Source: Escherichia coli
Lineage (GTDB): Bacteria > Pseudomonadota > Gammaproteobacteria > Enterobacterales > Enterobacteriaceae
DNA: 64,000 nt
Assembly: GCF_013315695.1 (NCBI RefSeq)
Contig: NZ_CP054353.1
Reading direction: 5' to 3' (one strand)
The translations under genes were made by a program, and so were the position numbers. The notes under the pieces were generated by a model. It was not told the DNA's origin. It ran no database searches and was given only the letters and a program-made list of their open reading frames with translations. Positions 12,724 through 16,903 of this stretch are shown here, piece by piece (position 1 is the first letter of the stretch; each line of letters starts with the position of its first letter).

Positions 12724-12730
12724 ATAAAAA

Positions 12731-12765
12731 CCCGGCGGCGTTCAGTCGCCGGGTCCATTTCTATA
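12731..12765 (+). terminator. Putative ppsA terminator
   Basis: CCCGGCG-GCGTTCAGT-CGCCGGG hairpin followed by a weak T-rich run. Confidence 0.5.
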
Positions 12766-12954
12766 TCCCCACCTTTTAACAACCTGCTTTGGGCAAACGC
12801 GCTCATGCAATATAAAAAGTTTCCGGACATCATCTGAATAATTGGCTGCTGTTCTTTCTGATTTTAATTTGTTTGCGATCCTCTCCACAGAATAATTCTC
12901 GATACCGTTTTTTCTCAAAGCCGAATGTGACCACACGTCAATTTCCTTAAGCAT
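12742..12954 (-). pseudogene. Possible remnant of a TetR-like regulator (N-terminal HTH fragment only)
   Basis: 70-aa ORF; segment NGIENYSVERIANKLK...NYSDDVRKLF resembles a TetR N-terminal HTH, then terminates where a ligand-binding domain would follow. Divergent from the accessory operon. Confidence 0.3.
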
Positions 12955-13205
12955 ATGCGTAATTTTTTCGTCCAGAGTTCGTTGGATTGCACGAAGTCAC
13001 TGATGAGTCCCGTTTTTATACTATCTTCAACCACAGCATAAAAAGGGATATGGCCATGAAAAATTACCGCACCGTTATTCAGACATAAGCGCAGATTATG
13101 TAATTCAGAGAATTTATTCGAACTAAAACCGATTTTCTGATTTGTCTGGCTGTACAGAAAACAGGATAAATTCCCTCCGCGAGCGGTGGGAAACAGCTAC
13201 AGGGA

Positions 13206-14612
13206 TTGCATATGAGTTGCTATTTGAAAGTCCTGATTTGTGCGATTGTCGCACTCGCTATATGGTTTTTCCCCGTCCCCGACGGATTAACACCCTTAAC
13301 CTGGCACATTCTGGCCATATTTATCACCACTGTGGTGGCGTTTATTCTGCAACCGTTGCCGGTGGGCGCTATCGCGTTAATAGCCATCAGTTTTATTATG
13401 CTGACCGGTATGATGAAAACCAGCGAAGCCTTAAAAGGTTTCAGCAGCACGACGGTATGGCTTATTGTCGCCGCATTCCTGTACGCGAAAGGATTCATCA
13501 AAACGGGGTTGGGGCGGCGTATCGCCTATTTGCTGATTCGCGGATTTGGCGGCAGCTCGTTGCGTCTGGGTTATACATTGGCGCTAAGCGATATGATTAT
13601 CGCGCCCGCAACGCCATCAAACACAGCGCGAGCAGGAGGGATTTTGTTCCCGATTGTTCGCAGTGTCTCTAACAGCTTTGGATCTGAACCGGATCAAGGG
13701 CCGCGTAAAATAGGCGCTTATCTGATGCAGACGGTGTTCCATTCCAACTGCCTCTCATCCTCGATGTTTATGACGGCCAGCGCGCCAAATGCACTCATTG
13801 TATCTCTGGCGGCCAGCACTTTATTTGTCGATATCTCATGGGGGATGTGGACGCTAAGCGCACTGGTGCCGGGCATTATCGCTTTTATCACTATGCCGTT
13901 GGTCATTTACAAACTCTACCCGCCAGAGATCAAAAAGACGCCAGAAGCCAAAGCGTTGGCACAGGAAGAACTTATCAAAATGGGGCCGGTAACCCGTGAT
14001 GAGCGCGTGACGATTGGCATTTTCCTGCTTTCATTATTGGCCTGGAGTACATCGAAATGGACTGGCCTGGATGCGACGGCTGTTGCGCTTTCTGGCGTCT
14101 GTTTAATGTTGATGACCCGGATTATCACCTGGCAGGATGTGCAGTCAGAGAAGGGGGCCTGGGACATTCTGGTCTGGCTGGGAGTCATGATCTGTATGGC
14201 AGATAAGCTCAATCAGCTTGGCCTGTTCAAATGGTTTGCCGTCACAACCTCGGCGCTGTTCACCGGCATTCCGTGGGAGATAACGTTGACGGTGTTGCTG
14301 ATAGTTTACTGCTATTCCCACTATTTCTTTGCCGGAAGTACGCCGCATGTAGTGGCGATGTATGCCGCTTTTGGCAGCGTCTCGGTTGCTGCTGGCGCAC
14401 CGCCGATGATGGCGGCTCTGTCACTGGCGTTCGTCACTAACCTGATGAGCGGCATTTCGCATTATGGCAACGGACCCGCAGTGATCTATTACGGCGCTGG
14501 CTATGTCTCGCAACGAGAATGGTGGCGGCTGGGCTTTATCGTCATGTTGTTGAACATTGTCATCTGGTTCGGACTGGGGGCGGTGTGGTGGAAAATTCTT
14601 GGCCTGTGGTAA
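13206..14612 (+). CDS. DASS-family (divalent anion:Na+ symporter-like) anion permease
   Basis: 468 aa, polytopic membrane protein with CitT/TtdT-like architecture; first gene of a tightly spaced four-gene operon. Confidence 0.8.
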   Translation: MHMSCYLKVLICAIVALAIWFFPVPDGLTPLTWHILAIFITTVVAFILQPLPVGAIALIAISFIMLTGMMKTSEALKGFSSTTVWLIVAAFLYAKGFIKTGLGRRIAYLLIRGFGGSSLRLGYTLALSDMIIAPATPSNTARAGGILFPIVRSVSNSFGSEPDQGPRKIGAYLMQTVFHSNCLSSSMFMTASAPNALIVSLAASTLFVDISWGMWTLSALVPGIIAFITMPLVIYKLYPPEIKKTPEAKALAQEELIKMGPVTRDERVTIGIFLLSLLAWSTSKWTGLDATAVALSGVCLMLMTRIITWQDVQSEKGAWDILVWLGVMICMADKLNQLGLFKWFAVTTSALFTGIPWEITLTVLLIVYCYSHYFFAGSTPHVVAMYAAFGSVSVAAGAPPMMAALSLAFVTNLMSGISHYGNGPAVIYYGAGYVSQREWWRLGFIVMLLNIVIWFGLGAVWWKILGLW

Positions 14613-14647
14613 GTGGCCTGCGACAAACATCAATCAAGGAATAGTGT

Positions 14648-15607
14648 ATGAACTTAAAAGATATTCAAGTGGCGATCGTCGGCAAACTAAGTGATCGCTT
14701 AATGGCTAAAGTTGAATCTACCTTCACCGCATATCGCCTGTGGGAACTGGCTGATGAAGGCGCTTTTTACACGCAAATCGCGCCGGATATTCAGGCGCTG
14801 GTGACCAGTGGTAATCCGGTAATGGGGGCTTCTCGGGCGCTAATAGAAAAATTTCCGAATCTGAAGATTATTGCCAGCAACGGTGTGGGTTATGACCCTA
14901 TTGATATCGTGGCAGCCAGGGAGCATGGCGTTATCGTCACCAACACACCTGGCGTGCTTAATGACTGTGTCGCAGACATTGGTATAGCGTTGTTACTCAA
15001 TGTTGCCCGACGTATTAACATTGCCGATCGTTATGTTCGTGACGGCCGTTGGCCAAACGAGGGGCGTTTCCCGATGGCGACGAAAGTGAGTGGCAAACGT
15101 TGCGGAATTGTCGGTCTGGGGAACATTGGTAACGCAGTAGCCCGCCGTGCAGCAGCATTTGAAATGGAAATTCACTATTTCGACCCAAAACCGCATAACA
15201 AACCTGATTGGACGGCGCATGATTCGTTGGTTTCTCTGGCGCAAGCGGTGGACTTCCTCGTTCTGACGCTGCCAGGCGGCGCGAGTACGCGCGGCGTTAT
15301 TGACAAAACGGTGCTGCAGGCTCTGGGGAAAACCGGGCATTTGATCAGTATTTCCCGGGGATCAGTGGTGAACGAAACCGATCTGATTGATGCTCTGCAA
15401 AATAACATTATTGCTGGTGCGGCACTGGACGTTTATGCCAACGAACCACATGTGCCAGAACAATTAATGTCGCTGGATAACGTTGTCCTTACGCCACATA
15501 TCGCCAGTGGTACGAGCGAAACGTTTAATGCGATGGCGGATTTGGTATTTGATAACTTACAGGCTTTCTTTAGCGGACAGCCAGTTATTACCCCTGTTAC
15601 TCAATAA
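14648..15607 (+). CDS. D-isomer-specific 2-hydroxyacid dehydrogenase (GhrA/GhrB/TkrA-like)
   Basis: 319 aa; NAD-binding GIVGLGNIGNAVARR and catalytic region (ISRGSVVNE..., LTPHIASGT). Confidence 0.85.
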   Translation: MNLKDIQVAIVGKLSDRLMAKVESTFTAYRLWELADEGAFYTQIAPDIQALVTSGNPVMGASRALIEKFPNLKIIASNGVGYDPIDIVAAREHGVIVTNTPGVLNDCVADIGIALLLNVARRINIADRYVRDGRWPNEGRFPMATKVSGKRCGIVGLGNIGNAVARRAAAFEMEIHYFDPKPHNKPDWTAHDSLVSLAQAVDFLVLTLPGGASTRGVIDKTVLQALGKTGHLISISRGSVVNETDLIDALQNNIIAGAALDVYANEPHVPEQLMSLDNVVLTPHIASGTSETFNAMADLVFDNLQAFFSGQPVITPVTQ

Positions 15608-15617
15608 GGCGGAAAAT

Positions 15618-16097
15618 ATGATTTATGGTGATATCGCGTATCTTAGTGAACAACAAAAGCGGACATTTCATCCTGTCATCACTCGTGTCATTGAGTATCT
15701 TTCACAACATGATCTGAATAGTCTTCCTGTGGGAGAGAAGGTTTTTATTCAGGATGACTCAATATTTTATACCGTGGTTGAACCGATGACTAAACCACTA
15801 CATGAATGTCGACCGGAAGTTCATCGTAAATATCTTGATGTCCATTTTTTAATTGCCGGAGAAGAGCGGATTTGTGTGGATTTTGATGATGGGGAAAACT
15901 CGGTTGTAGAAAGCCACCTGGGCGACCGTGATGTTATTTTTTATGCTGATGAACGTATTAATGATCGAATCATCACGCTGACACCAGGACAGTTTGTGGT
16001 GGTCTTTCCGGAAGAAGTGCATCGGGCATGCTATAAAATCGATAACGTGGAAAAAATCAAAAAAACAGTCGTGAAAATCGACATGAGTTTATTATAG
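15618..16097 (+). CDS. DUF386 protein (YhcH/YjgK/YiaL family; NanQ/EbgC-like)
   Basis: 159 aa from ATG 15618 (RBS AAGGCGG upstream); C-terminal region (TLTPGQFVVVFPEEVHRACYKI...KKTVVKI) matches the family pattern. The 204-aa form in the track overlaps the dehydrogenase. Confidence 0.75.
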   Translation: MIYGDIAYLSEQQKRTFHPVITRVIEYLSQHDLNSLPVGEKVFIQDDSIFYTVVEPMTKPLHECRPEVHRKYLDVHFLIAGEERICVDFDDGENSVVESHLGDRDVIFYADERINDRIITLTPGQFVVVFPEEVHRACYKIDNVEKIKKTVVKIDMSLL

Positions 16098-16109
16098 GCG
16101 GAGCTGGCT

Positions 16110-16853
16110 ATGACAAAAATTGCCCTGGTGACGGGGGGAAGTAAAGGCATCGGCTACGCAGCAGCAAAGGCACTCTATGACATTGGATATACAGTTATTG
16201 TTGCCGCGCGTAACGAAGAAACCTTACAGCAATGTGCACAAGGATTAGCCAAGGAACGCTTTATTCCTCTGGTTGCCGATGTCACGGATGAGTCCGCTGT
16301 CGTTGCGCTATTTGCCGAGATTAAGGCTCTTTTTGGTCGACTGGATCTCTTGTTCAATAATGCGGGCAATAATAGTCCGGCAAAAAGTATTGAAGAGGTT
16401 GAGTTTACTGAGTGGACGCGCGTGTTTAACGCCAATATTCATTCGACATTTTTGTGTTCGAAAGAGGCGATTAAAATCATGAAAGCGCAGCAGCCAATGG
16501 GAGGACGTATTATTAACAATGCGTCGATTTCTGCACTGACGCCGCGCCTCTATACTGCGCCATACACGGCGTCGAAACATGCTGTTACCGGGTTGACCAA
16601 GGCCATTTCCCTGGATTGTCGCAAATTTAATATCGCTTGCGGGCAAATTAATATCGGCAATGCGGAAACGACATTATCGAATCGGATGCGTAAGGGCGTT
16701 TATCAGGCAGATGGTGCTATTAAAGCGGAAGATATGATGAATGTTGCTGATGTTGCAGCGACCATTCAGATGATGGCTCAGTTGCCAGTAACCACGAATG
16801 TGCTGGAAATAACGATTATGGCAAATAATATGCCGTATGTCGGACGTGGTTAA
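16110..16853 (+). CDS. Short-chain dehydrogenase/reductase (SDR)
   Basis: 247 aa; TGGSKGIG, NNAG, catalytic YxxxK (YTASK). Confidence 0.85.
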   Translation: MTKIALVTGGSKGIGYAAAKALYDIGYTVIVAARNEETLQQCAQGLAKERFIPLVADVTDESAVVALFAEIKALFGRLDLLFNNAGNNSPAKSIEEVEFTEWTRVFNANIHSTFLCSKEAIKIMKAQQPMGGRIINNASISALTPRLYTAPYTASKHAVTGLTKAISLDCRKFNIACGQINIGNAETTLSNRMRKGVYQADGAIKAEDMMNVADVAATIQMMAQLPVTTNVLEITIMANNMPYVGRG

Positions 16854-16865
16854 TCGAGATTGAAT

Positions 16866-16898
16866 AAAGCACCTTGCGTGTAAGGTGCTTTATTATTT
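16866..16898. terminator. Hairpin terminator between the accessory operon and fadK 3' end
   Basis: AAAGCACCTT-GCGTGT-AAGGTGCTTT followed by ATTATTT; lies between convergent genes. Confidence 0.55.
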
Positions 16899-16903
16899 AT
16901 GAC

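Follow-up and report, generated by a model that had tools for sequence, protein, structure and literature searches.

Escherichia coli reduces 2-keto-aldonates with GhrB (TkrA). In its L-idonate pathway, IdnD and IdnO are paired dehydrogenases that move a keto group or invert a stereocentre. The yiaK-S operon of the same organism encodes a 2,3-diketo-L-gulonate reductase (YiaK), a DUF386 protein (YiaL) and a TRAP transporter (YiaMNO). In the marine alphaproteobacterium Paracoccus litorisediminis, biochemical and structural work has characterised a 2-keto-D-gluconate/2-keto-L-gulonate reductase, 2KGR (GL300_RS07940), and an L-threonate 3-dehydrogenase, Ltn3D (RS07945; PDB 9X6I and 9XAX) (Watanabe et al., J Biol Chem, February 2026; PMC12994016). 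Ltn3D oxidises C4–C6 aldonates of 2(R),3(S) configuration, D-gluconate among them, at the 3-OH, and the 3-oxo product is acted on by a kinase and a decarboxylase (PMC12994016). NanQ (YhcH), a ring-opening 'openase' for N-acetylneuraminate, is the only DUF386 member with an assigned function (PMC8141875). Here, we analysed a 64,000-nucleotide stretch of E. coli DNA (contig NZ_CP054353.1 of assembly GCF_013315695.1; "the window") and describe a four-gene cassette located between ppsA and fadK. The cassette encodes, in order, an anion permease of the DASS family, a D-isomer-specific 2-hydroxyacid dehydrogenase, a DUF386 protein and a short-chain dehydrogenase (SDR). We show that this gene set is conserved as a unit, that its products belong to defined families and that catalytic residues are retained. 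We suggest, with a probability of roughly one half, that the cassette is a catabolic unit that takes up an anionic keto or hydroxy sugar acid, opens its ring and converts it by redox reactions at C2 and C3.

The three best matches to the SDR in the PDB were 4DYV, 4DRY and 9X6I, at 242–256 bits. The next SDR scored 93 bits, and gluconate 5-dehydrogenase (1VL8) gave a generic match of 79 bits. The 9X6I protein is Ltn3D; its sequence was reconstructed and its locus found. The SDR and Ltn3D are 50% identical over their full length (242 amino acids). Residues R34, S139, S141, R146, Y152, K156, N184, E207 and M241 of the SDR equate to Arg33, Ser136, Ser138, Arg143, Tyr149, Lys153, Asn181, Glu204 and Met238 of Ltn3D, respectively. 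Mutation of S136, R143, Y149, N181, E204 or M238 in Ltn3D abolishes, or markedly cuts, activity or substrate affinity (PMC12994016). Positions S139, R146, Y152, K156, N184, E207 and M241 are invariant in all 7 SDR sequences aligned. Met186 of Ltn3D is Leu in the window, and an M186A mutant of Ltn3D is nearly wild type (PMC12994016). Of the Arg pair that recognises the NADP 2'-phosphate, Arg33 corresponds to R34, which is also invariant in the orthologues, whereas Arg34 is replaced by Asn35; site 3 is Ala, not Asp. Putative Ltn3Ds of an 'Arg-X' type have been described, with Arg33 being the more important residue (PMC12994016). By homology, the SDR is a predicted member of the Ltn3D (L-threonate/aldonate 3-dehydrogenase) subfamily. 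Comparison of the substrate loops of enteric and alphaproteobacterial SDRs identified no obvious extra cationic residues for a second carboxylate. Homologues of the SDR, at 75–82% identity, also stand alone in Citrobacter koseri and Klebsiella oxytoca. The former is a few kb from the garD/cdaR/garP/garL galactarate cluster, and the latter is between a ydjM-like gene and folD. Neither neighbourhood was informative about a pathway.

For the dehydrogenase, the best PDB match was 4LSW, the 2-keto-L-gulonate reductase of Ketogulonicigenium vulgare (Kv2KGR; 47% identity, 273 bits, E = 4e-80). HPPR and SmGhrB were a small margin below this, at 256–257 bits. The catalytic residues are kept: Arg in ISRGS, Glu in NEP and His in PHIASGT align with their counterparts in 4LSW, HPPR and SmGhrB. 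Pfam domains 2-Hacid_dh and 2-Hacid_dh_C are recorded on orthologues of the protein. The Asp in motif YFDPK aligns with Asp175 of Kv2KGR, which confers a preference for NAD(H) (PMC12994016). Orthology to GhrB was rejected; the dehydrogenase scored 175 bits with the GhrB equivalog model NF011938, for which the cutoff is 492, and no equivalog model reached its cutoff. Likewise, in contrast to the GhrB and Idn systems, the accompanying SDR is not a gluconate 5-dehydrogenase. We place the dehydrogenase in the GhrB/2-keto-aldonate reductase clade, with a predicted NADH-type Asp.

The closest known counterpart of the two enzymes is the Paracoccus pair. In both cases, a GhrB-clade dehydrogenase (the window protein is 41% identical to Paracoccus 2KGR) is encoded beside an Ltn3D-type SDR, with essential residues kept. 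The two Paracoccus genes are adjacent, 6 bp apart. In all five genera with the cassette, described below, the pair is split only by the DUF386 gene, and the gene order is reversed relative to Paracoccus. Cofactor sites also differ. The window dehydrogenase has the NADH-type Asp, whereas the Paracoccus 2KGR has Ser-Arg, of NADPH type. Furthermore, the Paracoccus genes are part of a large island for C4–C6 sugar acids, with dehydratases, a GntR regulator, TctABC and ABC transporters, OtnI and LtnD. The only transporter of the enterobacterial cassette is the DASS exchanger. Genes for an OtnK/OtnC-type kinase or decarboxylase, or for a sugar-acid dehydratase, were found neither in nor beside the cassette in any genus. 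The Paracoccus study mentions neither enterobacteria nor DUF386 (PMC12994016).

The permease scored 448.8 bits with TIGR00785, above the cutoff of 198.6. Its best solved relatives are chloroplast DiT1 (E = 6e-130), DiT2 and LaINDY (E = 1e-105). Outside the cassette, the closest relatives (55–60% identity) are Negativicutes proteins labelled "2-oxoglutarate translocator" or of the "malate transporter YflS" type. In alignment with LaINDY, the permease keeps motifs PSNTAR (with Arg159, the Na1 surrogate), SHYFF (His392), TPH (His401) and NGP. Asp replaces Glu146, the acidic partner of Arg159 in LaINDY. RefSeq labels the protein 'anion permease' or 'sodium-coupled symporter'. Because the Arg and two His residues that replace Na+ ions are kept, together with the substrate motifs, the permease is probably not a sodium-coupled symporter but a Na+-independent DASS-E exchanger of divalent anions. 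It shares Arg/His surrogates for Na+, the PSNxxR and NGP motifs and full-length similarity with the DASS-E exchangers LaINDY, DiT1/DiT2 and E. coli CitT and TtdT (PMC7553777). Unlike these, it is linked to genes for dehydrogenases of sugar-acid type, rather than genes for citrate or tartrate lyase or dehydratase.

Membership of the DUF386 family was clear from a score of 131 bits with TIGR00022 (cutoff 45.5). Orthology to NanQ was rejected, since the protein fell below the cutoff of the NanQ equivalog NF040884 (102 bits against 160) and neither nanA nor nanT was found near the cassette. Residues Glu67, His69, Asp74 and His135 equate to the YhcH metal ligands Glu63, His65, Asp70 and His130, and to Glu62, His64, Asp69 and His128 of YjgK. 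The match to the Haemophilus influenzae YhcH structure was weak (62 bits, E = 5.5e-16). The protein defines an isolated subfamily, with only 2 other 50%-identity clusters at E < 1e-30 among 1.84 billion representatives. Outside this subfamily, the nearest proteins (36–40% identity) are encoded in KduI/KduD/KdgT and KdgK/Eda operons, which act on cyclic 2-keto-3-deoxy sugar acids. The likeness to NanQ comprises the DUF386 family, four metal ligands and an operon setting beside an enzyme that needs a cyclic 2-keto acid in its open keto form (PMC8141875); the differences are the low scores, the small subfamily and the genetic context. By analogy, we infer that the protein may be a ring-opening anomerase, or 'openase', for a cyclic 2-keto acid. 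The yiaK-S operon resembles the cassette in pairing a keto-sugar-acid reductase with a transporter and a DUF386 protein. However, the yia reductase is of the Ldh_2 type, not a D-2-hydroxyacid dehydrogenase, and the transporter is TRAP rather than DASS. Also unlike the cassette, the yia operon has its own kinase, decarboxylase, epimerases and regulator.

Five genera carry these four genes in an unaltered order and without additions, each genus at a different locus. In Citrobacter youngae and Citrobacter freundii, the cassette is between a GNAT gene and tam. In Salmonella enterica, it follows cpoB (tol-pal/cpoB) and five tRNA genes (Lys, Val, Lys, Lys, Lys), and precedes a transposase fragment and bigA. 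This Salmonella site is a typical hotspot for integration, unlike the Escherichia site between ppsA and fadK. Mangrovibacter and the marine gammaproteobacterium Celerinatantimonas also carry the cassette with the gene order kept. The architecture is unchanged even at the lowest protein identities to the window (52% for the permease, 69% for the dehydrogenase, 48% for the DUF386 protein and 73% for the SDR). At the nucleotide level, homology to the Salmonella and Citrobacter cassettes, at ~76% identity, extends from ~13149 to the SDR stop codon. Linked regulator, kinase or aldolase genes were absent throughout the five genera. Distant homologues of the 2-hydroxyacid dehydrogenase found by genome scan (28–42% identity) never co-occurred with the other three genes. 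Taken together, these comparisons argue that the cassette is a self-contained, horizontally transferred unit that has moved among enteric genera. Conservation is uneven between proteins. Comparing Escherichia with Citrobacter or Salmonella, the permease is 94–95% identical and the DUF386 protein 69–74%. Permease identity is 52–55% in Mangrovibacter and Celerinatantimonas, the lowest or nearly the lowest of the four proteins; the SDR there is 73–82% identical. Such differences could be due to replacement of the permease or to differing selective constraints.

Within the window, the organisation of the cassette is operon-like (Table 1). The genes are on the same strand, separated by 35, 10 and 12 nt, and each is preceded by a motif resembling a Shine-Dalgarno sequence (CAGGGA, AAGGAA, AGGCGGA and AGGCGGAG, in gene order). 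A single hairpin, resembling an intrinsic terminator, closes the gene set. Its two 13-nt arms are 100% complementary, the loop is 6 nt and a U-rich tail follows. Its folding was predicted at −17.3 kcal/mol (z = −4.6), which 0 of 200 shuffled sequences equalled. No strong internal terminator was found within the cassette. An earlier reading of the window (the original prediction) had described four same-strand genes lying where the 3' ends of ppsA and fadK converge, with these gaps and a terminal hairpin, missing from the K-12 backbone. The coordinates were confirmed, the open reading frames proved intact, the gaps were exactly as described and the hairpin has a perfect 13-bp stem. The insert is indeed absent from K-12; the ends of fadK (1784677) and ppsA (1784734) are 56 bp apart in MG1655, and the BL21 interval is likewise 56 bp, without the cassette. 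Two findings were named that would count against the prediction: the same genes at this locus in K-12-type references with an assigned function, or evidence that they are transcribed separately. The references lack the genes. Nothing argues against co-transcription, given tight spacing, gene order kept in five genera and no strong internal terminator.

The 4.1-kb segment is carried by 114 of 5,426 complete E. coli genomes (~2%), among them IAI39 and SMS-3-5, which belong to phylogroup F. All 114 carriers have one chromosomal copy at the ppsA–fadK site. Plasmid carriage was rejected: no PLSDB record covers the cassette, and the matches listed were short ones to SDR genes on rhizobial megaplasmids. 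Two alleles are evident. The first, with at least 99% identity to the window, is present in 80 genomes, including IAI39 and SMS-3-5. The second, at ~96.3% identity, is present in 34 genomes, such as that of the O157:H16 strain Santai. The cassette also occupies the same locus in Escherichia whittamii and in cryptic-clade Escherichia. Alignment with BL21 puts the left junction just past the ppsA terminator, at ~12770, and the right junction inside the final ~50 nt of fadK. Carriers have a diverged fadK allele, of 546 codons compared to 548 in BL21, in which the last ~17 codons differ. Divergence from K-12 and BL21 climbs steeply towards both junctions (12600–12770 and 16904–17000). Between the two E. 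coli alleles, the island is 3.65% diverged and ppsA 1.7%. Between E. coli and E. whittamii, the values are 4.0% and 6%, respectively. Because of this pattern, the data suggest an old presence/absence polymorphism, reshuffled or maintained by homologous recombination, and not a recent insertion. The Escherichia locus lacks an integrase gene and flanking direct repeats; short repeats occur there at chance level only. Therefore, a classical integrative island was rejected for this site.

All four reading frames are intact in the window and in the examined carriers IAI39, MSB1_4I and Santai. The ratio of non-synonymous to synonymous substitution rates (dN/dS) between Escherichia alleles is 0.004–0.008 for the permease and 0.06–0.09 for the three enzymes. 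These values point to four functional genes under strong purifying selection. Insertion sequence (IS) elements lie under the cassette match in a few carriers: IS1 in CS5L, ISVsa5 in 88COLEC and IS2 in DSM 103246. This indicates occasional inactivation of the operon.

How might the four products act together? In the mechanism that we favour, the permease would import the substrate by anion:anion exchange, and this substrate would most likely be a dianion with two carboxylates. Next, the DUF386 protein, of Zn/Cu type, would open the cyclic hemiketal of a 2-keto acid, as NanQ does, to give the free keto form. The GhrB/2KGR-type dehydrogenase, with NADH, would reduce C2 to yield a 2(R)-hydroxy acid. 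Finally, the Ltn3D-type SDR, with NADP+, would oxidise the neighbouring 3-OH to give a 3-oxo acid. Overall, the keto group would move from C2 to C3 without net redox change. The β-keto acid product would pass to host enzymes encoded outside the cassette, such as the 3-oxo-acid kinase and decarboxylase OtnK/OtnC; the K-12 proteins YgbK and YgbL are homologues of these. From homology, we infer in what order and direction the steps run, what the DUF386 protein does and which substrates are likely. Candidate substrates are 2-keto-D-gluconate, 2-keto-L-gulonate or a 2-keto-aldarate. The original prediction had proposed uptake, then stepwise oxidoreduction or isomerisation, of an anionic hydroxy or keto acid. 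Homology and hidden Markov model searches placed all four proteins in subfamilies that support this, and conserved neighbourhoods, also sought by the prediction, turned up in Citrobacter, Salmonella, Mangrovibacter and Celerinatantimonas. Its caution that the substrate cannot be assigned from sequence still holds after subfamily placement.

Several observations weigh against this scheme. Identity to the characterised enzymes is only 41–50%. At this level, the substrate specificity of SDRs and 2-hydroxyacid dehydrogenases often shifts. The dehydrogenase is nearly as close to hydroxypyruvate, glyoxylate and hydroxyphenylpyruvate reductases as to its best match (257 compared to 273 bits). The cassette has no kinase, decarboxylase, aldolase or regulator, and the pathway must therefore rely on unlinked host genes. 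The stand-alone homologues of the SDR mean that this enzyme can function outside the cassette context. The main tension is between transporter and enzymes. The DASS-E exchangers characterised to date carry di- or tricarboxylates (PMC7553777), whereas the Paracoccus enzymes act on monocarboxylic aldonates, and the P. litorisediminis Ltn3D (PlLtn3D) did not oxidise L-tartrate (PMC12994016). The substrates indicated by the two thus differ somewhat, and two rival explanations were kept for this reason.

The first rival, which we consider unlikely, is an oxygen-tolerant pathway from a dicarboxylate to D-glycerate. Briefly, the exchanger would import a tartrate isomer or a longer aldarate, that is, a 2,3-dihydroxy-dicarboxylate. 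The SDR would generate a 2-hydroxy-3-oxo-dicarboxylate (oxaloglycolate), the metal-dependent DUF386 protein would aid tautomerisation or decarboxylation to hydroxypyruvate, and the dehydrogenase would produce D-glycerate for host glycerate kinases. This explanation suits the permease, which bears all DASS-E hallmarks; the family moves malate, 2-oxoglutarate, tartrate and citrate, and the charge-compensation model demands a divalent substrate. It also suits a dehydrogenase in the glyoxylate/hydroxypyruvate reductase clade, and it requires neither a kinase nor an aldolase in the cassette. In addition, tartronate, a dicarboxylate, binds the Ltn3D active site tightly (Ki = 55 µM; PMC12994016). The inactivity of PlLtn3D on L-tartrate counts against this pathway as well. 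Moreover, the known function of DUF386 is sugar-acid ring opening, but a C4 diacid has no ring, and the nearest DUF386 relatives are in operons for C6 keto-deoxy sugar acids. Similarly, the best solved relative of the dehydrogenase is a 2-keto-gulonate reductase. A scheme for epimerisation of meso-tartrate to L-tartrate was dropped; L-tartrate, not meso-tartrate, has the L-threonate configuration, and PlLtn3D refuses it.

The second rival, a doubly reductive route, is distinctly improbable in our judgement. Here, 2,3-diketo-L-gulonate (or 2,5-diketo-D-gluconate) would be imported, converted to L-idonate (2R,3S) and enter the host Idn/GntII pathway. A YiaL-like DUF386 protein would ring-open or dehydrate the substrate, the dehydrogenase would reduce C2 and the SDR, working in reverse, would reduce C3. 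The DUF386 paralogue YiaL sits in a 2,3-diketo-L-gulonate operon, reportedly the only one known in E. coli. The stereochemistry is also compatible; 2KGR enzymes yield 2(R) products and Ltn3D acts on 2(R),3(S) acids, with L-idonate listed as having this configuration (PMC12994016). Both reactions are reversible, a kinase is not needed in the cassette and the cofactor signatures fit, the dehydrogenase being of NADH type and the SDR of NADP(H) type. Against the route, a monocarboxylate substrate would have to be moved by a transporter of dicarboxylate-exchanger type. When PlLtn3D was offered stable oxidised compounds, which included no 3-oxo sugar acid, reduction was detected with D-glyceraldehyde alone (PMC12994016).

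A role unrelated to growth is less probable again. An external keto-dicarboxylate might be exchanged for its reduced hydroxy form, providing an electron sink or a scavenger of reactive α-keto acids. An exchanger fits precursor/product antiport, two oxidoreductases with differing cofactor signatures are present and no downstream catabolic genes or regulator are linked in five genera. Even so, the homologous Paracoccus pair is catabolic, and a conserved openase-type protein is hard to explain in a simple keto-acid sink. Finally, a cryptic and decaying remnant, without function in E. coli, is scarcely credible: carriage by only ~2% of complete genomes, the lack of a regulator and the IS1, IS2 and ISVsa5 copies inside a few cassettes are as expected for decay, but the reading frames are intact in the window and in all three carriers examined, the residues for catalysis and metal binding do not vary, the different genera share one architecture and selection analysis (dN/dS of 0.004–0.09) largely refutes the idea.

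Upstream of the permease gene is an AT-rich leader specific to the island (Table 1). Only the last ~65–80 nt are conserved in Salmonella and Citrobacter, where homology begins at 13133–13149. A scan of positions 12650–17000 at E ≤ 1 matched no Rfam family and, therefore, the leader is not a known riboswitch. Small minus-strand open reading frames in the leader (70 and 39 amino acids, at 12742–13090, and 33 amino acids) had no NCBIfam or Pfam match. A remnant of a regulator gene was considered, but without such a match the leader is treated as probably non-coding. A 19-nt block near the 3' end of the leader is identical at 17 of 19 positions in four aligned sequences (the Escherichia alleles and Citrobacter youngae). 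By eye, it overlaps a weak candidate promoter, consisting of TTGTCT (13142–13147), a 17-nt spacer and GATAAA (13165–13170), with 8 of 12 matches. A σ70 scan upstream of the permease found no plus-strand site at the threshold of 9/12. An inverted repeat follows, 20–40 nt before the permease start codon. In the few sequences available, both arms change together: C-G to T-A in Escherichia sp. MOD1, and TTCCTGC...GCAGGAA in Citrobacter. Together, the block and the repeat may act as an operator, or as a leader element, for a regulator encoded elsewhere; we regard this as a lead rather than a finding. The permease reading frame starts at TTG 13206 in the mechanical list of open reading frames, rather than at the RefSeq ATG.

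Upstream of the insert, ppsA keeps its own terminator at 12730–12754. Downstream, fadK is on the minus strand with its stop codon at 16904, such that the 3' ends of ppsA and fadK converge on the cassette. A feature not mentioned in the original prediction is a complete IS1 (768 bp, insA/insB; 17121–17888) within fadK, flanked by a 9-bp target duplication, GCGCATGAA, at 17112–17120 and 17889–17897. IS1 splits fadK into a 3' fragment (16904–17120) and a 5' part (17889–19321). When 5,426 complete E. coli genomes were searched, the top-ranked match stopped at the IS1 boundary. Judging from this match ranking, the insertion is probably private to the strain, and loss of fadK activity is probably confined to it.

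Table 1. Positions of the cassette genes, associated elements and neighbouring genes in the window.
Feature	Position	Strand	Details
DASS-family anion permease gene	13212–14612	+	466 aa, intact; RefSeq start ATG 13212
D-isomer-specific 2-hydroxyacid dehydrogenase gene	14648–15607	+	319 aa, intact
DUF386 (YhcH/YjgK/YiaL) protein gene	15618–16097	+	159 aa, intact
SDR gene	16110–16853	+	247 aa, intact
Intrinsic-terminator-like hairpin	16863–16894	+	Closes operon; specific to Escherichia locus
AT-rich leader/promoter region	12770–13211	+	Island-specific, non-coding; absent from K-12 and BL21; GC ~0.40
Conserved block GCTGTACAGAAAACAGGAT	13149–13167	+	Overlaps weak candidate σ70 promoter
Inverted repeat / 5' hairpin TTCCCTCCG-cgag-CGGTGGGAA	13171–13192	+	20–40 nt before permease start codon
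aroH	7977–9023	−	
ppsR	9180–10013	−	
ppsA	10345–12723	+	

RefSeq annotation of the cassette genes is generic ("anion permease", "SDR family oxidoreductase") and a literature search on the ppsA–fadK insert and the cassette found no relevant paper. The enzymes are new members of known families, and the whole is an uncharacterised variant of the sugar-acid catabolic clusters. The cassette is, in this sense, an ordinary kind of accessory metabolic operon, here placed at the level of enzyme subfamilies. It joins a DASS-E exchanger and a 2KGR-type reductase to a DUF386 protein and an Ltn3D-type SDR, and has neither kinase nor regulator. A bolder proposal, which we make tentatively and at odds well short of even, is that this is a new enterobacterial route. 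A DUF386 metallo-openase would feed a cyclic 2-keto sugar acid, once opened, into a two-dehydrogenase C2-to-C3 relay (reduction, then oxidation), in place of the OtnI isomerase, with a dicarboxylate-type exchanger for uptake. The substrate of such a relay may be a keto-aldarate, 2-ketogluconate or an ascorbate-derived acid.

Our findings extend the Ltn3D/2KGR pair, described in 2026 in marine alphaproteobacteria, to enteric bacteria, with a new architecture and another class of transporter. The labels "anion permease", "sodium-coupled symporter" and "SDR family oxidoreductase" can become more specific as a result. DUF386 is widespread and has one assigned activity; the cassette offers a clean four-gene system in which to ask whether the "openase" role is general. 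If the openase-fed relay is correct, it would be the second biochemical function for DUF386. It would also provide a private nutrient for E. coli of the phylogroup F type and for some Salmonella and Citrobacter. More generally, the cassette may give carrier E. coli, some Salmonella and Citrobacter access to a lineage-specific nutrient, possibly from the gut or from plant material.

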